DNA of 64,000 nucleotides from NCBI GenBank assembly GCA_049280815.1, contig JBAPQW010000053.1, positions 125,108 to 189,107 on the forward strand, written 5' to 3'. The notes beneath the pieces are model-generated. The model searched no databases, had not been told where the DNA came from, and saw only the letters and a list, made by a program, of their open reading frames with translations. The translations under genes and the position numbers were made by a program. This document shows positions 2,846 through 59,655 of this stretch, piece by piece (the first letter of the stretch is position 1; each line of letters opens with the position of its first letter). This DNA comes from Verrucomicrobiia bacterium. Its GTDB lineage: Bacteria > Verrucomicrobiota > Verrucomicrobiia > Limisphaerales > UBA11358.

Positions 2846-3877
2846 TCAGAACTGGCGCAGAAACCGCACGTCGTTTTCGTAAAAGAGCCGGATGTCATTG
2901 ATGCTGTAACGAATCATGGCGATGCGTTCGATGCCAAAGCCGAACGCCCAGCCGGTCCAGATTTCGGGGTCATACCCGACGTTCTCGAACACCTGCGGAT
3001 GCACCATGCCGCAACCGGCGATTTCCAGCCAGTCCTTGCCCATCTTTTTGACCAGCGCGCTGCTGAAATCGATTTCGAAGCTCGGCTCAGTGTAGCTGAA
3101 ATAATGCGGGCGGAAACGGATCTTCACGTCGCTGCCGAGCAGTTCCTTGAAGACGAACTCGACCGTGCCTTTGAGGTCGCCGACGGTGACGCCCTTGTCC
3201 ACGTAAAGCCCTTCAATCTGCTGGAAGGTCGGATTGTGGGTGGCGTCGGCATTGTCGCGGCGATAGACGCGGCCCGGGACGATGATGCGCACCGGCGGCG
3301 GCTGCGATTTCATGACGCGGATTTGGACCGAAGAGGTGTGGGTGCGTAAAAGGAGTTGAGAGTTGACGGTTGATGGTTGAGAGCCATCAGGCTTTGCAAG
3401 GTAGAACGTATCCTGGGCGTCGCGGGCAGGGTGGTCGGCGGGGGTGTTGAGCGCGTCGAAACAATGATACTCGTCCTCGATTTCCGGGCCGTCGGCGACG
3501 GCGAAGCCGAGCTTGCGGAAGGCGCGGACGATGTCTTCGGTCACCTGGGTGAGCGGATGCAGTTTGCCCAGTGCGCGGCGGCGGCCAGGGAGGGTGAAAT
3601 CGGTTGGCTCCTTGGGCAGCGCAGCCTGGAGTTCGAGTTCCGCACGCCGGTCGGCCAGCGCGGCTTCAAGTTCGACCTTGGCGGCGTTGATGAGTTTGCC
3701 GGCGGCGGGCTTTTCCTCCTTGGAGAGCGTGCCGAGCTGTTTCATCAGCGCAGTGAACTTGCCATTAGGCCCGATCCAGGCGCCCTTGGTCTGTTCGAGC
3801 GCGGCGAGGTCGGGCGCGGCTTTTAAATCCGCCAGGGCGGTTTGTTTTAGCGGCTCAATGTCATTGAGAAGTCCCAT
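2846..3877 (-). CDS. pheS: phenylalanine--tRNA ligase alpha subunit
   Basis: Class II aaRS core is recognisable (FRPHYFSYTEPSFE, GWAFGFGIERIAMI). The ORF-track start at 3919 is TTG, so I chose the ATG at 3877 (MGLLNDIEP), giving 343 aa. Confidence 0.9.
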   Translation of the reverse strand: MGLLNDIEPLKQTALADLKAAPDLAALEQTKGAWIGPNGKFTALMKQLGTLSKEEKPAAGKLINAAKVELEAALADRRAELELQAALPKEPTDFTLPGRRRALGKLHPLTQVTEDIVRAFRKLGFAVADGPEIEDEYHCFDALNTPADHPARDAQDTFYLAKPDGSQPSTVNSQLLLRTHTSSVQIRVMKSQPPPVRIIVPGRVYRRDNADATHNPTFQQIEGLYVDKGVTVGDLKGTVEFVFKELLGSDVKIRFRPHYFSYTEPSFEIDFSSALVKKMGKDWLEIAGCGMVHPQVFENVGYDPEIWTGWAFGFGIERIAMIRYSINDIRLFYENDVRFLRQF

Positions 3878-3911
3878 ATGAATCGAAGCTGGAGGATAGA
3901 GGATGGCAGAG

Positions 3912-3954
3912 GGAAACAAAAGAAAAACGGGCGAGCCTTCTCAGGTCGCCCGTT
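3912..3954 (-). terminator. intrinsic terminator between rplT and pheS
   Basis: Minus strand reads AACGGGCGA / loop CCTGAGAAGGC / TCGCCCGTT, followed by TTTTTCTTTTGTTT. It lies 21 nt after the rplT stop and 35 nt before the pheS ATG. Confidence 0.8.
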
Positions 3955-3975
3955 AAGATTTGTTGCCGAACCCGA

Positions 3976-4359
3976 TCAGGCCTTGGCCAGGGTGGCGGCG
4001 GGTTTGGCCTTCAGCGCGTTTTTGGCGATATTGACCAGTTCATTGAAGGCGGCGGCATCGGTCGCGGCGAGATCGGCGAGCACTTTGCGGTCGAGCGCGC
4101 ATTTAGCGGCCTTGAGTCCCTCGATAAATCGGCTGTATGTCAGACCGGCGGCGCGCGCGGCGGCGTTGATGCGGATCTGCCAGAGATAACGGAAATTGCG
4201 CTTCTTGGTGCGGCGGTCGCGATAGGCATATTGCCGGCCATGGTCCACGGCGTCGGAGGCGTAACGGTACAGTTTGGAGCGGCGCATCCGGTAGCCTTTG
4301 GCGGCTGTGACCATCCGTTTGCGGCGTTTGCGGGAGGCGGCGGCGTTGGTAACTCGCAT
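3976..4359 (-). CDS. rplT: 50S ribosomal protein L20
   Basis: 127 aa with typical L20 sequence (KGYRMRRSKLYR, YAYRDRRTKKRNFR). It follows rpmI. Confidence 0.95.
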   Translation of the reverse strand: MRVTNAAASRKRRKRMVTAAKGYRMRRSKLYRYASDAVDHGRQYAYRDRRTKKRNFRYLWQIRINAAARAAGLTYSRFIEGLKAAKCALDRKVLADLAATDAAAFNELVNIAKNALKAKPAATLAKA

Positions 4360-4395
4360 GGTTTAAATGAGCGTTGAGGTTAAATTGGGGTCCGG

Positions 4396-45248: not shown

Positions 45249-46193
45249 GTGAAAATTTTCAGCGGCACATCCAACGAACCTCTGGCCCGGGCCATCTGCA
45301 AATCCATCGGCAGCGAACTCGGCAAGTGCTCCGTCCAGCCGTTTCCCGATGGCGAGACGTTTGTGAAGATTGAGGAGAACGTGCGGGGCGAGGACGTGTT
45401 CATTGTCCAGCCCACGTCGCCGCCCACCAACCACAATCTGATGGAGCTCTTCATCATGATTGACGCGGTGCGGCGGGCGAGCGCGACGCGCATCACGGCG
45501 GTGCTGCCGTTTTATGGTTACGCGCGCCAGGACCGCAAGGACCAGCCCCGCGTGCCCATTACCGCCAAACTCGTGGCGAACCTGCTCGTGGCCGCCGGCG
45601 CCGGCCGCATTCTGGCCATGGACCTCCACGCGCAGCAGATCCAGGGTTTCTTCGACATCCCCGTGGACCATCTCTATGCCGCGCCCGTGATGTATGAGTA
45701 TTTGAAGAAAAAAAACCTCACCGACCTGGTCGTGGTCAGCCCGGATGTGGGCGGGCTGAAAATGGCGCACGCGTATTCCCAGGTTCTCGGGGGCGGCCTC
45801 GCCATCGTGGCCAAACGCCGCAAGAGCGCGACGGAAGTTGAGTCCATGGCGGTCATCGGTGATATCAAGGGCAAGAATGTGCTGCTGGTGGATGATCTGA
45901 CGGAAACGGCGGGAACCTTGACGCAGGCTTCGGCGCTGCTGAAAAAGAAGGGGGCGAAACAGATTCTGGCCTGTGTTTCCCATGCCATTTTGAATGACGT
46001 GGGCATCGAAAGATTGCGAAAATCGGTGATTGACGAATTGATTACAACTGATACAGTCCAACGCCCTGCAATTGACGGTGTGAAAATTACCACATTGTCA
46101 GTGGCCGGGCTGTTGGGCGAAGCCATCAAGCGGATTCACAGCAATTCGTCGGTGAATTCGCTGTTTGAATTCAAAGGCGGGCGCACCAGTTAG
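45249..46193 (+). CDS. prs: ribose-phosphate pyrophosphokinase
   Basis: 314 aa with a GTG start and typical Prs sequence (MKIFSGTSN, DLHAQQIQGFFDIPVDHL, VDDLTETAGT). Confidence 0.95.
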   Translation: MKIFSGTSNEPLARAICKSIGSELGKCSVQPFPDGETFVKIEENVRGEDVFIVQPTSPPTNHNLMELFIMIDAVRRASATRITAVLPFYGYARQDRKDQPRVPITAKLVANLLVAAGAGRILAMDLHAQQIQGFFDIPVDHLYAAPVMYEYLKKKNLTDLVVVSPDVGGLKMAHAYSQVLGGGLAIVAKRRKSATEVESMAVIGDIKGKNVLLVDDLTETAGTLTQASALLKKKGAKQILACVSHAILNDVGIERLRKSVIDELITTDTVQRPAIDGVKITTLSVAGLLGEAIKRIHSNSSVNSLFEFKGGRTS

Positions 46194-46217
46194 CGCCAAA
46201 CAATTTATTATTTTAAG

Positions 46218-47021
46218 ATGAAATCAGTGCCGTTAAAAGCGTATCCCCGGACGCAGTCGCGTCGGAACGGGGCCAGGAAATTGCGTGCTGCCGGGCGTGT
46301 CCCCGCCGTCATTTATGGCCGGCAGGACAAACCGCAAAACCTCGAGATCAGCGCCAAGGAACTTGGCGACCTCATCCACCGTTCCGTTTCGGAAAACCTG
46401 CTGGTGGACCTGTCCGTCGAAAACGATGCGCGGTCCAGGCGCCTCGTGCTGGTCCAGGAAATCCAGCACCACCCGCTGGGCGGCGACGTGCTTCATGTGG
46501 ACTTCCACGAAGTGACCGAGAACGAGAAGGTTGTCATTTTGGTGCCCTTGGAAACCGCCGGCGAAGCGGCGGGCGTTAAAAACAGCGGCGGGGTGCTCGA
46601 ACACGTGGTGTTCAAAGTGAAGGTGCGCGCCCTGCCCAAGGATTTGCCGGAGCAACTGATCGTGGACGTCACCAACCTCGAACTCGGCAAATCCATCCAC
46701 CTCGGCGACATCAAGCCGCCCGAGGGGGTCGAGATAATCGGCGACAAACATATTTCGGTCATCTCCGTCGCCCTGCCGCGAACGGAGGAAGAGGAAGCGA
46801 CAGCCGTGGTGGAGGGTGAGGCGGCCGCTGGCGATGTCGAAATGATCAAGGAAAAGAAGGAAGATGGCGAAGAAGGTGCGGCCCCGGCCAAGGGCGAGAA
46901 GGGTGCCGCCAAGCCCGGCGAAAAAGCGCCGGCGAAGGGCGCCGAGAAGGGCGCTGCCGCAGCCGCGGAGAAGGGTGCCGCCAAGCCCGGCGAAAAAGCG
47001 CCGGCGGAGAAAAAGAAGTAA
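46218..47021 (+). CDS. rplY: 50S ribosomal protein L25/Ctc with a K/A/E/G-rich tail
   Basis: 267 aa with an L25/Ctc N-terminal domain (RKLRAAGRVPAVIYG) plus a beta-barrel domain. The C-terminal roughly 60 aa are low-complexity (EKGAAKPGEKAPA repeated). Confidence 0.9.
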   Translation: MKSVPLKAYPRTQSRRNGARKLRAAGRVPAVIYGRQDKPQNLEISAKELGDLIHRSVSENLLVDLSVENDARSRRLVLVQEIQHHPLGGDVLHVDFHEVTENEKVVILVPLETAGEAAGVKNSGGVLEHVVFKVKVRALPKDLPEQLIVDVTNLELGKSIHLGDIKPPEGVEIIGDKHISVISVALPRTEEEEATAVVEGEAAAGDVEMIKEKKEDGEEGAAPAKGEKGAAKPGEKAPAKGAEKGAAAAAEKGAAKPGEKAPAEKKK

Positions 47022-47063
47022 TTTTGCCGGCGATCGACGAGGGTCGCCGCCCCCGCGCCGCGC

Positions 47064-47669
47064 ATGGAGAATTTGCATCTCATCGTGGGTTTGGGCAATC
47101 CCGGCGCGGAGTACGCGAAGACACGCCACAATGCCGGCTTCACGCTGGTTGAGATGCTGGCGGTCCGCTGGCAGGCAGACTGGGCGAACGAATGCAGGTT
47201 CAATGCCCGTGTCGCGCGTGCCGAACGCAACGGCTTGCGCGTTTTGCTCTGCCAGCCGCAGACGTTCATGAATTTGAGCGGCGAGGCGGTCGGTGCCATA
47301 AAGAATTTTTACCAGCTGCCGCTGGCCGGGCTGGTGGTGGTGGTGGACGACGCGGATTTGCCGTTGGGCGAGATTCGCCTTCGGGCGGCTGGTGGCAGCG
47401 GAGGCCATCACGGGCTTGAGTCCATCGGGCAACATCTGGGTTCGGGCGAATTTGCGCGGCTGCGGCTCGGCATCGGCCGGGCGGATGGCGCGCGGGAAAT
47501 CACGGACCATGTGCTCGGACGGTTTGACGCGGTCGAGGCCGCGCTGATGGAAAAGGTTTTTGGCCGCGCCGCCGACCAGATGGAATGCTGGCTGGCGGCC
47601 GGAATTGAGAAAGCAATGAACCGGTTTAATGGAGTCGTGGACTCCGCCAACGAAGAAAAAAAATCGTGA
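47064..47669 (+). CDS. pth: peptidyl-tRNA hydrolase
   Basis: 201 aa with LIVGLGNPGAEYAKTRHNAGF, in the conserved prs-ctc-pth order. Confidence 0.95.
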   Translation: MENLHLIVGLGNPGAEYAKTRHNAGFTLVEMLAVRWQADWANECRFNARVARAERNGLRVLLCQPQTFMNLSGEAVGAIKNFYQLPLAGLVVVVDDADLPLGEIRLRAAGGSGGHHGLESIGQHLGSGEFARLRLGIGRADGAREITDHVLGRFDAVEAALMEKVFGRAADQMECWLAAGIEKAMNRFNGVVDSANEEKKS

Positions 47670-47971
47670 AACGATACGAAGGTCTGTTCATCCTGAATAC
47701 GGCGGGCAAGGAAGAGAGCGTCAAGGACGCCCTCGACAAAATTTCCGCGGAAATCGAGGCGGCGGGCGGCAAGGTCGAGACCGTGCAAAAGATGGACAAA
47801 AAGAGCTTTGCGCGCGTGGCGGACAAAAAGCACAACGCCGGCTTTTACGCGAATGTGATTTTCACCGGCTCGTCAACCATCATCTCGCAGTTGCGCGCCA
47901 AGTTTGCGCTGAACGAGGAAGTGTTCCGCGTGCTGTTCACCTCCGCCCCTGAACCCAAACCCGCCAAGTAA
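47666..47971 (+). CDS. rpsF: 30S ribosomal protein S6
   Basis: 101 aa with a GTG start overlapping the pth stop. MKRYEGLFIL is a typical S6 start. Confidence 0.9.
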   Translation: MKRYEGLFILNTAGKEESVKDALDKISAEIEAAGGKVETVQKMDKKSFARVADKKHNAGFYANVIFTGSSTIISQLRAKFALNEEVFRVLFTSAPEPKPAK

Positions 47972-47985
47972 CGAAAGGTTCCGCC

Positions 47986-48444
47986 ATGGCCAGCTTCAAT
48001 AAAGTCATCCTCGCCGGCAATTTGACCCGCGATCCGGAGTTGCGCTACACGTCCAAGGGCACGGCCGTCGCCCGCATCGGGCTGGCCTGCAACCGCAAGT
48101 GGAAGAGCGAAACCGGCGAGATGAAGGAAGAGGTCACCTTTGTGGACGTGGACGCGTTTGGCCGTACGGCCGAAACCATCGGCCAATACTTGAAAAAAGG
48201 CCGCCCCATTTTGATCGAAGGCCGCCTGCGCTACGAAACCTGGGAAGACAAGCAGACCAAACAAAAGAAAAGCAAACTCGGGGTGGTGCTGGAAAATTTC
48301 CAATTTCTTGATTCCGGCGGCGGCCGGGGTGAGAGTGGTCCCGCCGAAACTCCAGCTACGCGGCCCGCTGCCACGGCTTCAGCCCCGGCGCCCGAAGGCG
48401 GCGAAGCGGACGGCCCCCCGGAAGGCGACGACGTTCCCTTTTGA
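47986..48444 (+). CDS. ssb: single-stranded DNA-binding protein
   Basis: 152 aa with an OB fold (NKVILAGNLTRDPELRYT), a Gly/Pro-rich linker and the acidic tip DDVPF. Confidence 0.95.
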   Translation: MASFNKVILAGNLTRDPELRYTSKGTAVARIGLACNRKWKSETGEMKEEVTFVDVDAFGRTAETIGQYLKKGRPILIEGRLRYETWEDKQTKQKKSKLGVVLENFQFLDSGGGRGESGPAETPATRPAATASAPAPEGGEADGPPEGDDVPF

Positions 48445-48506
48445 TCTCAAGTTTGGGAGATGCTCGATCTCTCAGCCATCAACTCGCAACTCTCAACCAT
48501 TTTCAT

Positions 48507-49208
48507 ATGCCAAAGACTGAAGTCATCCTCACGCACAACATCGTCGGCCTTGGCGCCGAATCCGACCAGGTGAAGGTCGCCGCCGGTTACGCGCGCAACT
48601 ATCTGTTTCCGCAACGCCTGGCTGTTCCGCTCACGCAGGCCAACAAACGGCAGATCGAGGCCTTGCGCCAGCGCCGGGCCGACCGTGAAGCGCACGAGTT
48701 CAACACCATGAGCGAGCTCGCCAAGGGCGTGGCCAAACTGATTTGCCTCATCAAAGTCAAGGCGGGCGAGGACGGCAAGATGTTCGGCTCGGTGACGGCC
48801 GGGGTGATCGCCGACGAATTGAAGCACCAGTTCGACATCCTGCTCGACCGGCGGAAGATCCACCTCGAGCATCCGATTCGCGCGCTGGGCGACCACGAAA
48901 TCGAATTGCACCTCCATGCCGAGGTAAAGGGCACCCTGAAGGTACGGGTTGAGAGTCTCACGCCGGTTGTCGCCCCGGCAACGGCTGCGGCGGACGCCAA
49001 GCCCCGGACTGAAAAGCGCGGCCGGCATGCTGAAGGTGAAAAGACCGGAAAACCTGAAGCCGCCGAAACCAAAACCAAGGGTGAGAAACACGCCAAAATT
49101 GAAAAAGCCGAAGCCGTTGAGACCAAACCCAAAGCCGAGAAACACGTAAAAGCGGAGAAGGCACCCAAGGCGCCGAAAGCCGAGAAGAAAGAAAAGAAGG
49201 CCGAATAG
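48507..49208 (+). CDS. rplI: 50S ribosomal protein L9 with a Lys-rich tail
   Basis: 233 aa from the ATG at 48507 (MPKTEVILTHNIVGLGAESDQVKVAAGYARNYLFP). The C-terminal roughly 85 aa form a K/E/A/P-rich extension. Confidence 0.9.
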   Translation: MPKTEVILTHNIVGLGAESDQVKVAAGYARNYLFPQRLAVPLTQANKRQIEALRQRRADREAHEFNTMSELAKGVAKLICLIKVKAGEDGKMFGSVTAGVIADELKHQFDILLDRRKIHLEHPIRALGDHEIELHLHAEVKGTLKVRVESLTPVVAPATAAADAKPRTEKRGRHAEGEKTGKPEAAETKTKGEKHAKIEKAEAVETKPKAEKHVKAEKAPKAPKAEKKEKKAE

Positions 49209-49237
49209 TCCGGTAACGCATCAATCTGTTTTTAACC

Positions 49238-49268
49238 AGCCGCGGAAATTTTCCGCGGCTTTTTTGTT
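49238..49268 (+). terminator. intrinsic terminator after rplI
   Basis: Perfect 10-bp stem AGCCGCGGAA-ATT-TTCCGCGGCT followed by TTTTTGTT. Confidence 0.85.
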
Positions 49269-49323: not shown

Positions 49324-50790
49324 ATGATTCCAGCATACCTGTATCCGGCCACGATTGCATTTTGTCTGGTGGCGATTGTCGTCGTCTATTTCTTCAATAA
49401 TCCCATGCGGCATGGACGCTGGTTCATGATGCGCCGCTTCATCAACTGGTTCCCGCTGGGGATGACTTACGCATTTTTGTGCATGGGGCGCTACAACCTG
49501 ATTGTCGCCAAGAGCGCCCTGGGAACGTTGATGTCCAAGGGAGACCTCGGAATCATTTTCGGGGTGGGTACGTGGGTTTACGCGCTGTCGTTTCTGGTCA
49601 ACGGCCCGCTCATTGACAAAAAGCTGGGCGGGAAGCGCGGGATGATCATTTCCGCCCTCGGCGCCTCGCTGGCGAACGTCGCCCTCGGCGTGCTGACCTG
49701 GCTGATTGTCGCCAAAAACCTGAAGGTGAACCTCGTCGCCAGTTTTTCGGTCCTTTATGCGATCAACATGTATTTCCAGAGCTTCGGCTCCATGTCCATC
49801 ATCAAGGTCAAGGCGTATTGGTTTCACGTGCGCGAACGCGGCGTTTTCGGCGCCATTTTCGGGTCGCTGATTTCGATCGGCGTCTATTTTGCATTTGATT
49901 GGGGAGGCGCCATCATTGACCAGACGAAGGCGGATGCCTCCGGCTTGCTGCATACGGTATTTGCGCCCGCCGGCCCGCCCTTGGATGCGACCTGGGCGGT
50001 GTTTTACATTCCGGCGGCCATTTTGCTCGTCTGGGTTCTGCTGGATTGGTGGCTCATCAAGGATTCGCCGGAGGAGGCGGGACTGCCGCACTTCGACACC
50101 CACGACGCCTCGTCCGGCCAGATGCACATTGAACTGACCGTGTTTGACCTGCTGAAAAGGGTTTTCACCAGCCGGCTGATGCTGTTGATTGCCTGCGTCG
50201 AGCTGACGGGCGGGGTTTTTCGTTACAGCATGACCCAGTGGTATTCCATTTTTGCCGCTGAAGTGAAACAGCCCGGCGCCGAATTTTTCTCGCAGCATTG
50301 GGGCTGGTACACCTGCGTGTTCGGGATTGTCGGCGGATTTTCCGGCGGCTTGATTTCCGACAAGCTGTTCCAATCCCGCCGCGGACCGCCCGCCGCCTTG
50401 CTGTGCGGCTTCGTCCTGATCATGGCGGTGCTGATGTCCCTGTGCCTGTTTTCCCAGCCCGTGGTGGTGGGCTGGGCGGCGGTGTTCATCGTCATGGCCT
50501 CCATTGGCATCACGTCCCTGATGTCCGGCACCGCGGCAACGGATTTCGGCGGACGCAAGGCGACGGCGACCAGCATGGGCATCGTGAACGGCTTTGCCTA
50601 TGTCGGCAGCGGCATTCAATCCTTCAGCCTCGGCTTTTTATTGGCAAACAAGGGGGGAAGCTGGCAATGGTTGCCGGTTTTTGTAATTCCCTTCGCCATC
50701 ATCGGAACATTTATTGCCATCAAAATCTGGCATGACCTGCCCGCCGCCACCCGCAAATACATCGACGATGTTGAGCAAAAAAGGGCCTAA
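49324..50790 (+). CDS. MFS transporter (organophosphate/anion-antiporter-like)
   Basis: 488 aa with about 12 TM segments and MFS-like loops (GPLIDKKLGGKRG, SDKLFQSRRGP). The substrate is not inferable. Confidence 0.8.
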   Translation: MIPAYLYPATIAFCLVAIVVVYFFNNPMRHGRWFMMRRFINWFPLGMTYAFLCMGRYNLIVAKSALGTLMSKGDLGIIFGVGTWVYALSFLVNGPLIDKKLGGKRGMIISALGASLANVALGVLTWLIVAKNLKVNLVASFSVLYAINMYFQSFGSMSIIKVKAYWFHVRERGVFGAIFGSLISIGVYFAFDWGGAIIDQTKADASGLLHTVFAPAGPPLDATWAVFYIPAAILLVWVLLDWWLIKDSPEEAGLPHFDTHDASSGQMHIELTVFDLLKRVFTSRLMLLIACVELTGGVFRYSMTQWYSIFAAEVKQPGAEFFSQHWGWYTCVFGIVGGFSGGLISDKLFQSRRGPPAALLCGFVLIMAVLMSLCLFSQPVVVGWAAVFIVMASIGITSLMSGTAATDFGGRKATATSMGIVNGFAYVGSGIQSFSLGFLLANKGGSWQWLPVFVIPFAIIGTFIAIKIWHDLPAATRKYIDDVEQKRA

Positions 50791-50807
50791 ACCGGCCAAA
50801 ACAGGGC

Positions 50808-50836
50808 TTGACCGCTGTGCCTCAGGGATTTAAACT
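50808..50836 (+). promoter_or_regulatory. candidate promoter of the ilvB leader
   Basis: TTGACC (50808-50813), 17 nt, TAAACT (50831-50836). The predicted TSS is 1-3 nt before the leader ATG. Confidence 0.45.
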
Positions 50837-50845
50837 GAAACCGCA

Positions 50846-50917
50846 ATGTTGAAAAATGCCATCCAAGTCGTCACACTGGTCGTCGTCGTAGTTAGCGACG
50901 CCGTTGGCGCTTGTTGA
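50846..50917 (+). CDS. Val-rich leader peptide of ilvB (attenuation leader)
   Basis: 23 codons encoding MLKNAIQVVTLVVVVVSDAVGAC. There are 8 Val (5 consecutive at 50879-50893) plus Ile and 2 Leu. It lies immediately upstream of a terminator hairpin and ilvB. Confidence 0.6.
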   Translation: MLKNAIQVVTLVVVVVSDAVGAC

Positions 50918-50937
50918 ATGGTACAATTTAACAAGAA

Positions 50938-50972
50938 CCCACGGCTGCAAAACGGCTGTGGGTTTTTTGTTT
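50938..50972 (+). terminator. attenuator/terminator hairpin upstream of ilvB
   Basis: CCCACGGCTG-CAAAA-CGGCTGTGGG (10 bp, 2 G-U pairs) followed by TTTTTTGTTT. It lies 20 nt after the leader stop and 35 nt before the ilvB ATG. Confidence 0.8.
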
Positions 50973-51006
50973 AAGCCCGCGCCGGCGGCCGCAACCGAAA
51001 GAGCCC

Positions 51007-52929
51007 ATGAGCAAGACAACTGAAATCGCTGGATCCGCCTCCGCCGCAAAAACGGCTTCGGCGCGACGAGACAAAAAAACCAACGCCGCGCGTGCCGAGG
51101 TAGGCCCGACCATGCCCGGACGCGACATCCTGGTCGAAGCTCTCGAACGCGAAGGCGTGGAAGTCATTTTCGCCTATCCCGGCGGGGCGAGCATGGAAAT
51201 CCACCAGTCGCTGACAAAATCTAAAATCCGCACCATCCTGCCGCGCCATGAACAAGGCGGCAGTTTTGCGGCGGAGGGTTACGCCCGGGCGACCGGCAAG
51301 GCCGGCGTCTGCATGAGCACCAGCGGTCCCGGCGCGACGAACCTCGTCACCGCCATCGCCGATGCCTACCTCGATTCCTGCCCGCTCATCGCCATCACCG
51401 GCCAGGTCAACCAGAACATGATCGGCCGCGGCGCGTTCCAGGAGACCGACATCATCGGGGTGACGCTGCCCATCGTGAAGCACAGCTATCTGGTCACGGA
51501 CGTGAATGACATTCCGCGCATCGTGAAGGAGGCGTTTTACATCGCGCAATCCGGACGTCCCGGTCCGGTGGTGATTGACGTGCCGAAAAACATCCAGCAG
51601 GCCAAAACCCAGCCGGTGTGGCCAACGCTCGAACAGGTCAAGAAAGGCCTGCGTGGCTACAACCAGCCCGATCTGCGCGCCGATGAAGTGGCCTTGAATG
51701 AAATCATGGGCCTGATCGAAAAAGCCGAGCGCCCGGTGATTTATTGCGGCGGGGGCATCATCAGCAGCGGCGCGGCGGCGGAACTGAAAAAGTTTGCCGA
51801 AGCGACGAACATTCCCGTGACCACCACGATCATGGGCATCGGCGGCTTTCCGGAAACGCATCCGCTGTCGATGCGCTGGCTCGGGATGCACGGCGCGGCC
51901 TACGCGAACTGGGCCGTCAGCGGCGAATACAAACAGCGCCTCGATCCCAACGAGCCGATGGTGAAGCTCAAGGACGGCGCCGATTTGCTGCTCGCGTTCG
52001 GGGTGCGATTCGACGATCGCGTGACCGGCAAGTTCGAGGAGTTTTGCAAATACGGCACGATCGTCCACCTGGACATTGACGCGTCCGAGTTGAACAAAAA
52101 CCGGCGGGCCAACCTGGCCGTGGTGGGGGACATCAAGGACGCCCTGACGCGGCTCAACGCGATGCTTGCCAAGCGTCCGCTCAATAAAAAGCACACCCCG
52201 TGGCTTGATCAAATTGAGGAATGGAAGAAGAAGGCCCCGTTTGCCTACGCCATCACCCAGGAAATCGCCGGCAGCGACCACATGAAGGACCATCTCAACG
52301 GCCAGCAAGACCAGATCATTCTGCAGCAGATGGTGGTCGAGGCGCTGTACGAATTGAGCAAGGGCGAAGCCATCATCACCACCGGCGTGGGCCAGCACCA
52401 GATGTGGGCCGGCCAGTGGTACAAGTACAAATATCCGCGCCAGTTCATCACCAGCGGCGGGCTGGGTTCCATGGGCTACGGCTATCCCGCCGCGCTCGGT
52501 GTCAAGATCGCGCATCCGGACAAGGAAGTGGTGGACATTGACGGTGACGGTTCATTCCTGATGAACATCCAGGAACTGGCCACCGCGCACGTCGAGAAAA
52601 TCAACGCCAAGGCCATCATCCTGAACAACCAGCACCTCGGCATGGTGGTGCAATGGGAGGACAAGTTTTATGCCGGCAACCGCGGCCACACTTACCTCGG
52701 CGATCCGGACCATCGCGCGGAGATTTATCCAGACTACGTGCGTGTCTGCAATTCCTTCAACGTGAAGTGCGAGCGGGTGATGTTCAAAAAGGACCTGCGC
52801 CCCGCCATCCAGCGGATGCTGGACGCAAAGGAACCGTATGTGCTCGACGTGGTGGTGCCCTACACCGAACACGTGCTGCCCTTCGTGCCGGCCAACCGCA
52901 CCGTGGCCGACATGATTTGGAAGGCCTAA
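51007..52929 (+). CDS. ilvB: acetolactate synthase (AHAS) large subunit
   Basis: 640 aa with TPP-enzyme motifs (GGLGSMGYGYPAALG, IDGDGSFLMN) and FAD and N-terminal Pyr domains. An alternative in-frame start at 51112 (MPGRDILVEAL) is possible. Confidence 0.95.
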   Translation: MSKTTEIAGSASAAKTASARRDKKTNAARAEVGPTMPGRDILVEALEREGVEVIFAYPGGASMEIHQSLTKSKIRTILPRHEQGGSFAAEGYARATGKAGVCMSTSGPGATNLVTAIADAYLDSCPLIAITGQVNQNMIGRGAFQETDIIGVTLPIVKHSYLVTDVNDIPRIVKEAFYIAQSGRPGPVVIDVPKNIQQAKTQPVWPTLEQVKKGLRGYNQPDLRADEVALNEIMGLIEKAERPVIYCGGGIISSGAAAELKKFAEATNIPVTTTIMGIGGFPETHPLSMRWLGMHGAAYANWAVSGEYKQRLDPNEPMVKLKDGADLLLAFGVRFDDRVTGKFEEFCKYGTIVHLDIDASELNKNRRANLAVVGDIKDALTRLNAMLAKRPLNKKHTPWLDQIEEWKKKAPFAYAITQEIAGSDHMKDHLNGQQDQIILQQMVVEALYELSKGEAIITTGVGQHQMWAGQWYKYKYPRQFITSGGLGSMGYGYPAALGVKIAHPDKEVVDIDGDGSFLMNIQELATAHVEKINAKAIILNNQHLGMVVQWEDKFYAGNRGHTYLGDPDHRAEIYPDYVRVCNSFNVKCERVMFKKDLRPAIQRMLDAKEPYVLDVVVPYTEHVLPFVPANRTVADMIWKA

Positions 52930-52951: not shown

Positions 52952-52986
52952 CGGCCGGGTGAATGTTTTTCATCCGGCCGTTTTTT
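52952..52986 (+). terminator. intrinsic terminator after ilvB
   Basis: CGGCCGG-15 nt loop-CCGGCCG followed by TTTTTTG, 23 nt after the stop. Confidence 0.7.
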
Positions 52987-57864: not shown

Positions 57865-59655
57865 CTATTTTTTATCGTATTCTCCGGCAACCGGGTTTGG
57901 GTTGCTCCAATCACCATGAGGTTCGGCGCCATCCATATATGAATTAGGATTGATCTGGCCTTTCATCACCGTCGGTTTGGATTTGAGGAAATCGGTATTG
58001 GCGGATGAGGCCAGTTGGAAGTCGCTGTCCTTGATGATGGTGGGCGTCAAGAAAATGATCAGGTTGTCCTTGATCGTCTCTTTGGTCTGGCTGCTGAAGG
58101 CCCATTTTAGTCCGGGGATATCGCCCAAGACAGGTACTTTGGTGTAAGTTTCCGTCGGATTGTCATTGACCATGCCGCCCATGACTAGGGTATCGCCATT
58201 GGGTATCATCGCCTGCGAATCCAACTTGCGATAATCAAACAATGGAACCGGGTACGTTGTTGAGCCATTGCCGCCTCCGCCAGACACGGTGACGATGACA
58301 TCGCCAAAATGGTCAGAAACGACAGGCAGCACTTTCAACCAGATGAAATCATTGGCCGAAATGCGTGGGGTTACATCCAGGATGGTTCCGACGTTGGAAT
58401 AGGTGATCGACGAGCTGCCGGAGTTGTTTGCCGTTCCGCCACTCAGGTTGATGATCGGGTAGCTGCGGGTGACTTCGATGTGGGCCGTTTCGTTGTCCAA
58501 AGTGACGACGCGGGGGGTGGAAGTAATCTGGGCGTCGTAAGTTGAATTCAGGAAGGAGAGCACGGCACTCGCGCCGTCGGCATTAAGAAACCCAATCCCC
58601 GGTGTGAAGCCGCTGGCCGTATTGTAGGACACGCCACCAGCGCCCTGGATAATCTTCAGCGCAGTCGAAGAGGGTGTGCCAGGAATCGTGGTTGTCGTCG
58701 CGGAAACTGGACTCATCAAGCCGTTTCCAAAAGTGACGTGTTGTGCCGCCAGCGTGCCGGACCAATCAACTCCCTTGGAGGTCTTGGGGTCGGTGGAAAT
58801 CTGGACCAGTTTGGTTTCAATCAATACCTGCCGGGTGGGTTTGTCGAGTTGGTTCAATAGCGAGTCCACGGCTTCCTGTTCGCTCTCAGTGGACACGACC
58901 ACCAACTGGCTGGTGCGCACATCCGGCAATACCTTGCTGCGCTTGTCCGTGAAGGAAGCGGTGATCGAATCCACCATGTTCGAGGTGCTGGCGTACTTGA
59001 GTTGAACGACGCGCGTCACCAGCGGGATCGGGGCCGAGGGATCCTTGGTGGAGATGCGGGCAATCTGGCTCTTGCGATCGGAAACGAGTTGCAAACCATA
59101 GTTGTCAAGCAAGGCCGTAAGCGCCTGCTCGGCGGTGACATTTTCCCAACGGATGGACAGCGTGGGTTCGGGTTTAATCACCCCATTCTGGTCAGGCTGG
59201 CCGTAACCGATCTTCGGATCGATCAGGTAATTGATTCCCGCCTGGCGGGCCAGGTTTTCAATGGCCGTGGTGATCGGGACGTCCTGAAATTGAATCAAGG
59301 GTATGGTGGGCGGTGCCGCCGGCTGGGGGCTGGCCGCGCTGGCGTTATCATTGCTGCTGGCCGTCGCGGGAGGTTCGCTCGTGGCGGCGGTGGCGGCGGT
59401 ATTGGTGCTGGTCGCAGCCGGAGTATCGCTGGCGCTGGCCACCGCTGGCGCCGTTGGAGTGGCGGCGGCGGCATCGGTGCCGGTCGTCGCGGGAGCCGCC
59501 GTCGCGTTGGCGGCAGCGGCAGAGGCGGGCTGGGTCGCGGGCGCAACGCCATCCGAGGTGGCTGGGTTGGTTGCAATGGTATCAGTTTGGGACAAGGCCC
59601 CCTGCTGCCATGCAAGGCATCCCAGCAGTGTTGCGATTAGTATTTTTGTTTTCAT
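57865..59655 (-). CDS. pilQ: type IV pilus secretin PilQ
   Basis: 596 aa with a signal peptide and an A/T/P-rich low-complexity N-terminal region. The secretin C-domain motifs are VPVLGDIPGLKWAFS and LIIFLTPTII. Confidence 0.85.
   Translation of the reverse strand: MKTKILIATLLGCLAWQQGALSQTDTIATNPATSDGVAPATQPASAAAANATAAPATTGTDAAAATPTAPAVASASDTPAATSTNTAATAATSEPPATASSNDNASAASPQPAAPPTIPLIQFQDVPITTAIENLARQAGINYLIDPKIGYGQPDQNGVIKPEPTLSIRWENVTAEQALTALLDNYGLQLVSDRKSQIARISTKDPSAPIPLVTRVVQLKYASTSNMVDSITASFTDKRSKVLPDVRTSQLVVVSTESEQEAVDSLLNQLDKPTRQVLIETKLVQISTDPKTSKGVDWSGTLAAQHVTFGNGLMSPVSATTTTIPGTPSSTALKIIQGAGGVSYNTASGFTPGIGFLNADGASAVLSFLNSTYDAQITSTPRVVTLDNETAHIEVTRSYPIINLSGGTANNSGSSSITYSNVGTILDVTPRISANDFIWLKVLPVVSDHFGDVIVTVSGGGGNGSTTYPVPLFDYRKLDSQAMIPNGDTLVMGGMVNDNPTETYTKVPVLGDIPGLKWAFSSQTKETIKDNLIIFLTPTIIKDSDFQLASSANTDFLKSKPTVMKGQINPNSYMDGAEPHGDWSNPNPVAGEYDKK

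Follow-up and report, generated by a model that had tools for sequence, protein, structure and literature searches.

Comparative evidence for a probable valine-responsive transcription attenuator upstream of ilvB in Verrucomicrobiota

In Escherichia coli, the ilvBN operon is preceded by the leader peptide IvbL (MTTSMLNAKLLPTAPSAAVVVVRVVVVVGNAP), which carries the Val runs VVVVRVVVVV and is followed, about 30 nucleotides (nt) on, by a GC-rich hairpin and a U tract just before ilvB. Leader-peptide attenuation of ilvB has also been shown experimentally in Corynebacterium glutamicum, where ilvL transcription begins 1 nt away from the start codon and valine control is abolished when VVV is replaced with AAA (PMC11857589), and a Leu-rich attenuator peptide operates in Staphylococcus aureus, again on experimental evidence (PMC5794164). 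Attenuation by ilvB leaders has been predicted in other Actinobacteria (PMC1262725), and ilvB leaders have been predicted in Leptospira and within the multi-phylum ilvB-OMG motif (PMC10272879). Here we analyzed the ilvB locus in a stretch of 64,000 nt from a Verrucomicrobiia bacterium (contig JBAPQW010000053.1; hereafter the window, whose positions are used throughout, on the plus strand unless stated), where a short Val-rich open reading frame (ORF) and a hairpin precede the gene. A preliminary description of this stretch had proposed a ribosome-mediated attenuator laid out like E. coli ivbL-ilvBN and had called the mechanism one documented mainly in Proteobacteria. The statement on distribution is out of date in view of the systems just cited. 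The layout does correspond, with an ORF carrying a Val run and then a terminator hairpin just upstream of ilvB, and the proposal itself is upheld by the conservation of the ORF, the covariation of the terminator, the mutually exclusive structures, the stall geometry and the independence of the unit from the upstream gene. On the basis of sequence comparison and folding models, we consider it very probable that the leader is a classical ribosome-mediated transcription attenuator coupling ilvB to charged tRNA-Val.

The leader ORF (50846-50917; 23 codons followed by UGA, MLKNAIQVVTLVVVVVSDAVGAC) contains 8 Val codons, five of which are consecutive (GTC GTC GTC GTA GTT, 50879-50893). Together with Val-Val at 50867-72, a Thr codon and a Leu codon at 50876-78, this run forms a regulatory codon zone (50867-50893) in which 7 of the 9 codons are Val. 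A consensus scan placed a sigma-70-like promoter site ahead of the ORF, with TTGACC as the -35 box and TAAACT as the -10 box, separated by a 17-nt spacer (50808-50836). Twenty nucleotides beyond the leader stop codon lies a core hairpin, CCCACGGCTG/CGGCTGTGGG (50938-50962), of 10 bp including two G-U pairs and followed by TTTTTTGTTT; in addition, the sequence GCCGTTGG (50900-07) is complementary to CCCACGGC at 7 of 8 positions. The ORF lies 89 nt upstream of ilvB (51007-52929), which encodes the large subunit of a biosynthetic acetolactate synthase (TIGR00118, 670 bits against a cutoff of 538), and the terminator hairpin with its U tract ends 35 nt before this gene. An intrinsic terminator follows ilvB (52952-52986), consisting of a 12-bp stem (52952-52980) and a U run. 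The ORF, the Val run, the hairpin, the 7-of-8 complementarity, the promoter and the ilvB terminator had all been listed in the preliminary description, and each was found where it had been placed. The 140-nt leader region folds better than shuffled sequences (z = -4.5), and, its antisense mirror aside, the leader is the only short ORF on either strand of the window in which a run of an amino acid other than Arg is followed by a terminator-like hairpin. The arrangement of leader ORF and hairpin is thus beyond chance.

The unit is conserved in a well-delimited group of relatives. The 80 best ilvB matches among species-representative genomes were Verrucomicrobiota metagenome-assembled genomes (MAGs) of the Limisphaerales/Pedosphaera group (83 to 92% identity), assigning the host, earlier noted only as non-proteobacterial-looking, to the Verrucomicrobiota (Limisphaerales/Pedosphaerales, Pedosphaera-like, subdivision 3). 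We aligned 78 related genome loci with upstream sequence, the pairing counts given below referring to 79 sequences and to an extended set of 87. A leader with an in-frame start, a Val run and a stop was present at 78/78 of these loci, and also at 8 metagenome loci with an ilvB 70 to 88% identical (L081-083, L085-087, L115 and L125). Promoter hexamers, leader ORF, hairpin and U tract could all be aligned cleanly across relatives, as could a conserved UUUAACAAGAACCCACGGCU block; the family consensus peptide is MLKNVSQVVxLVVVVVSDAVGAC, and there is a second flavour, MFGQIRQV...GACRS. Such an alignment of ilvB upstream regions had been proposed as a check, and it revealed both a conserved short Val-rich ORF and a covarying hairpin. 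A covariance model built from the leader alignment gave one match per locus (87/87), upstream of ilvB wherever the position was checked, and one real match in the 64-kb window. The protein search for further relatives returned only sequences of at least 85% identity, and more distant loci came from scanning metagenomes with a 50%-cluster representative (62% identical) as the seed. At all of the approximately 70 loci whose ilvB was at most 61% identical, the leader was absent by both the covariance model and an ORF scan.

The gene upstream of the leader unit was an orthologue of the major facilitator superfamily (MFS)-type gene at about 21 loci and rplI at about 12, and was neither of these at most others, indicating that the unit goes with ilvB rather than with the MFS gene. 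This bears on the possibility that the hairpin is merely the intrinsic terminator of the MFS gene (PF07690, stop at 50790), as the preliminary description had itself considered, or a general insulator, the Val-rich ORF being incidental. The MFS gene does lack a terminator of its own before the leader promoter (50790-50846), and transcripts reading through from it are probably also ended by the attenuator hairpin in this genome. However, the combination of ORF and hairpin tracks ilvB and is found where rplI or unrelated genes lie upstream. The leader ORF is separated from the MFS gene by a conserved promoter, and 87 loci retain the start codon, Val run and stop of the ORF. A mere MFS terminator is largely refuted by synteny, and we regard it as extremely unlikely.

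Among the relatives were ten MAG records with other organism labels that carry a Limisphaerales-type ilvB (84 to 87% identical), labelled Bifidobacterium or Bifidobacteriaceae (L010, L030, L031, L044, L058, L073 and L075), Pseudomonadales (L048), Ca. Sulfotelmatobacter (L056) and Akkermansia muciniphila (L068). The verrucomicrobial leader was present in 9 of the 10, L030 having no upstream sequence, and the labels look like mis-binning or mislabelling.

The leader RNA can be divided into four segments that pair in three ways. The terminator is formed by 50933-47 and 50953-67, its 5' arm lying in segment 3 (UUUAACAAGAACCCACGGCUG, 50927-50947) and its 3' arm, CGGCUGUGGG, constituting segment 4 together with the U tract UUUUUUGUUU (50953-50972). 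These positions were paired in 98.2% of cases across the 79 sequences, compared to 46 to 61% for slid controls, with a compensatory change from A-U to G-C in 17 sequences and G-C/G-U exchanges elsewhere. In most relatives the terminator loop is a GNRA tetraloop, and the first five positions of the U tract are each kept in at least 77 of the 79 sequences. The competing antiterminator pairs GCCGU.GG..CUUGUUGAA (50900-18) in segment 2 with UUUAACAAG..CC.ACGGC (50927-45) in segment 3, giving a 16-bp interrupted helix over 19 nt. The 8-mer complementarity, which had been put forward as a weak candidate antiterminator, proved to be only the outer part of this conserved and covarying helix, whose predicted stability as an isolated hairpin (-23.5 kcal/mol) is close to that of the terminator (-22.9 kcal/mol). 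It was paired at 94% in the 79 sequences and at 93.7% in the extended set of 87 (slid controls, 25 to 57%); 19 to 25 sequences show U-A replaced by C-G, and covariation was seen at two pairs. The two structures share 50938-45, and at position 50941 pairing is maintained in both of them whether the base is A or G. Finally, in the minimum-free-energy fold, segment 1 (CAAGUCGUC...GUCGUCGU, 50864-50886) pairs with segment 2 (GCGACGCCGUUGGCGCUUGUUGAA, 50895-50918), the strand shared with the last leader codons and the stop codon, so that an anti-antiterminator could form when the ribosome is absent. In it the Val codons GUCGUCGU face GACGCC (89.5% paired), and in 78 of the 79 sequences CUUG is paired with a near-invariant CAAG, which is made up of the Gln codon and a G. 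A contiguous register for the same helix was rejected, being paired at 81% and showing no covariation beyond shuffled sequences.

We then modelled the effect of a stalled ribosome by folding the nascent RNA up to 50947, the end of segment 3, under a 28-nt ribosome mask. The probability of the antiterminator was 0.84 to 0.99 as long as the A site had not moved beyond the fourth Val of the run, and it was approximately 0 from the fifth Val to the stop codon. The same switch boundary, at the end of the Val run, was found in about 70 of 75 homologues. A ribosome would not be needed as the sensor if the hairpins were switched by a metabolite riboswitch, a tRNA (in the manner of a T-box) or an RNA-binding protein, with the upstream ORF (uORF) only modulating the outcome. 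There are precedents for caution, since other ilvB leaders were first taken as riboswitch candidates (PMC10272879) and since mutations of candidate regulatory codons in Streptomyces coelicolor were without effect on ilvB regulation (PMC1262725). However, the coincidence of the Val-run end with the in-silico boundary speaks for the ribosome, as does the lack of a conserved unpaired pocket, the ORF, the three helices and the U tract accounting for nearly all conserved bases. Moreover, Rfam at gathering thresholds gave no match in the window or in 10 related loci, and in a permissive scan no family, T-box and riboswitch families included, matched the leader at E values up to 10, His_leader being the best sub-threshold match. 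We therefore hold a non-ribosomal switch to be very unlikely.

The pattern of substitutions differs between the Val run and the end of the leader ORF. Within the Val run, codon positions 1 and 2 are fixed (GU) and the third positions vary. The last six codons (D-A-V-G-A-C) show no such relaxation at their third positions, which are no more variable than the other two, and this points to a constraint at the RNA level on segment 2. Judged from this variation, the Val run appears to be under amino-acid-level selection and the tail under RNA-level selection. Relatives in which the UGA stop is changed to CGA have a peptide extended by two to three variable residues (CRS, CRG, CRC or CRN), and 19 of the 29 CGA sequences carry the matching G in segment 3, arguing for selection on RNA pairing and not on the peptide. 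These data also address whether the product of the ORF is itself functional, as a hydrophobic micro-protein with a conserved DAVGAC tail, or whether the terminated leader RNA of about 125 nt acts in trans, attenuation being secondary or absent. The high conservation of the C-terminal D-A-V-G-A-C could be read in favor of the former, and trans-action has a precedent in Sinorhizobium, where trans-acting leader peptides and attenuator small RNAs (peTrpL and rnTrpL) exist (PMC7298713, PMC6614838). However, the C-terminal conservation is at the nucleotide level, includes synonymous sites and coincides with the pairing of segment 2; the CGA variants merely append variable residues while keeping the segment 3 match described above; and the N-terminal half of the peptide is variable. 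A product acting in its own right, with attenuation at most secondary, thus seems extremely unlikely.

The choice of Val codons in the leaders is unusual for these genomes. GUC makes up 40%, GUU 30%, GUA 27% and GUG only 3.4% of the leader Val codons, whereas the ilvB ORFs of the same genomes use GUG (60.7%), GUC (32%), GUU (6%) and GUA (1%), a difference with a chi-square of 1001. The longest Val run comprises 3 to 6 codons in 66 of 74 other leaders and 2 codons in the remaining 8, and in the 10 codons up to the switch boundary the share of Val is 57%. One GUA codon, at 50888, is placed in the loop formed when segments 1 and 2 pair and is shared by 67 of 77 sequences. Sensing through rare codons is one plausible explanation, pairing constraints being another.

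The Val codons have a mirror on the minus strand, where an ORF (50830-50934) contains a Thr run (TTTTT) whose wobble positions coincide with those of the Val codons. Third-position variation alone cannot separate the two strands, but context does: the antisense ORF has no promoter, no terminator and no correctly oriented target gene, and an antisense reading was rejected.

The promoter-like site is one of only two such matches in 5.5 kb, and the pattern TTGAC-N16-18-TAnnnT was found at 78 of 79 homologous loci. The distance from the end of the -10 box to the leader start codon is 9 nt at 48 of 78 loci and 7 to 8 nt at 21 of 78, and no Shine-Dalgarno sequence precedes the leader ORF. As the -10 box lies so close to the AUG that no room is left for a Shine-Dalgarno sequence, we infer that the leader ORF is probably leaderless.

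Overall, the locus combines the elements characteristic of the attenuator class, namely, a short upstream ORF, codons for the product of the pathway, an intrinsic terminator as recognized at the sequence level, an exclusive antiterminator and a fitting stall geometry, and on this basis the following sequence of events can be proposed. Transcription would start about 7 nt past the -10 box, essentially at the leader AUG, allowing leaderless translation. When Val-tRNA is plentiful, the ribosome would pass the Val codons, reach UGA (50915) and cover segment 2 (50895-50918), leaving segment 3 to pair with segment 4, so that the hairpin and U tract (50933-50972) would halt RNA polymerase 35 nt short of ilvB. 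Under a shortage of Val-tRNA, the ribosome would stall on the Val codons (50867-50890), which are mostly the rare GUA, GUU and GUC, and segment 2 would be exposed. It could then pair with segment 3 as soon as the latter has emerged, forming the antiterminator; the terminator would come too late, and transcription would read through into ilvB. Without translation, segment 1, which contains the Val codons, could pair with segment 2, also favoring termination.

Several observations weigh against this scheme. When the full leader including segment 4 was folded at equilibrium, the terminator won at every ribosome position. Mutually exclusive structures, for which the preliminary description had suggested a search, did appear when the nascent RNA was folded, a stall leading to the antiterminator. 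Since equilibrium folding always favors the terminator, the switch in the ilvB leader would have to be kinetic, through competition between the structures as they emerge. A kinetic decision is usual for leader-peptide attenuators. In addition, only the outer 7-bp part of the antiterminator excludes the terminator, the inner 9-bp helix being able to coexist with it, and this outer part is nearly invariant and so offers little covariation. The state without a ribosome is ambiguous, with antiterminator probabilities from 0 to 0.99 among homologues. The pairing of segments 1 and 2 showed no compensatory change among the 79 sequences, and for this reason its support is only moderate. Lastly, the avoidance of GUG could stem from pairing constraints rather than from tRNA abundance.

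A more far-reaching version of the proposal would combine several of these features. The leader could be an independently evolved, leaderless and Val-specific attenuator of the Planctomycetes-Verrucomicrobia-Chlamydiae (PVC) superphylum that senses a single rare-codon isoacceptor, with GUA at 50888 as the last productive stall site, and whose abundant RNA of about 125 nt or invariant-tailed 23-amino-acid (aa) peptide would also act in trans, like rnTrpL and peTrpL in rhizobia. In this full form we think it very unlikely. For the classical attenuator favored here, the mechanism is textbook, and the advance concerns range and annotation rather than concept: classical ribosome-mediated attenuation would now be placed in the Verrucomicrobiota, a phylum abundant in soil and freshwater and genetically poorly studied. 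No account of such an attenuator in the Verrucomicrobiota emerged from our literature searches, the survey of Lopatovskaya et al. 2010 (cited in PMC4833913) lying outside their coverage. The leaders also make up a well-defined and well-sampled RNA family not included in Rfam, with 87 members, one per genome, and a covariance model. They offer a compact case for studying the coupling of leaderless translation to transcription, whether rare codons (GUA and GUU instead of GUG) tune sensitivity, and how one RNA strand evolves under the triple constraint of coding, antiterminator and anti-antiterminator.

As had been noted earlier, ilvB has its own terminator and no adjacent ilvN or ilvH. The terminator indicates that the unit is monocistronic, and no match to ilvN, to a small subunit or to an ACT domain was found among the ORFs scanned further downstream, which extend to 56939 and also include 57865-59655. 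The N-terminus of the ilvB product carries a Lys/Ala/Thr-rich extension of about 35 residues, MSKTTEIAGSASAAKTASARRDKKTNAARAEVGPT (51007-51114); homology to TIGR00118 starts at residue 37, a second ATG is present at 51112, and most relatives give a tblastn match that covers the extension (residues 1-640). Upstream of the MFS gene, the order at 45249-49260 is prs, rplY (L25/TL5), pth, ssb and rplI, with a terminator at 49238-49260 after rplI. In some relatives ilvB directly follows rplI, and judged from this gene order the MFS gene appears to be a variable insertion separating the ribosomal cluster from the ilvB unit.

In 14 relatives, an AT-rich imperfect palindrome of about 95 nt with a GC-rich apex is inserted at the start of ilvB, between the attenuator terminator and the ilvB ATG (L005 [2890-3000 of that locus], L006, L008, L013, L014, L017, L020, L021, L026, L027, L032, L045, L058 and L067). 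It occurs in two flavours, (GATTAAG)n...(CTTAATC)n and (GGATGATTGGAT)n...(ATCCAACAATCC)n, and folds at -28 to -35 kcal/mol (z of about -5). In L086 a copy lies 3' of ilvB (4311-4380 of that locus), and such a copy downstream of the gene makes the palindrome look like a mobile hairpin related to repetitive extragenic palindromic (REP) sequences or to miniature inverted-repeat transposable elements (MITEs). The palindrome is absent from the window.

Elsewhere in the window, the covariance model gave a second match (3910-4046, minus strand), which was rejected as the rplT terminator before pheS, without a Phe leader. In this region (3900-4360, minus strand), a strong terminator (GGGCGACC...GGCUCGCCC with a U run) lies after rplT (L20) and immediately before pheS, and no Phe-rich leader ORF was seen before pheS, unlike the case of E. 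coli pheM-pheST.

Compared to the described systems, the verrucomicrobial leader is similar in architecture and distinct in sequence. The whole model of Rfam His_leader (RF00514) aligns to 50859-50970 with 28.6 bits and an E value of 0.004, mainly through the terminator and the overall layout; however, this remains below the gathering threshold of 49, the codons are Val and not His, and many model pairs are broken, so that the ilvB leader is not a member of this family. The Leptospira ilvB and ilvB-OMG motifs, candidates from the Breaker laboratory, likewise have uORFs rich in branched-chain amino-acid codons before ilvB, those of Leptospira having at least three consecutive Val codons about 70 nt upstream of the gene (PMC10272879), but they belong to other lineages and have other structures, the ilvB-OMG alignment of about 210 nt being unlike the leader described here. 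The logic proposed here, of stalled ribosome, antiterminator and terminator, is that of E. coli ivbL-ilvBN. IvbL, however, has 32 aa, its leader also includes Leu codons and its operon contains ilvN, whereas the present leader has 23 aa, is probably leaderless and is Val-dominated with rare codons, and its ilvB is monocistronic. Our covariance model scored the ivbL region at a weak 21 bits, reflecting a shared architecture for which homology is not demonstrable. In C. glutamicum ilvL-ilvBNC and the Corynebacterium ilvB-II motif, a peptide with a Val run (MTIIRLVVVTARRLP) is translated leaderless and is accompanied by three hairpins, namely, an anti-antiterminator, an antiterminator and a terminator (PMC11857589; PMC10272879). 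That system belongs to another phylum, shares no sequence similarity with ours and has a 292-nt leader region before ilvBNC, while in the Verrucomicrobiota the element spans about 130 nt before ilvB alone.

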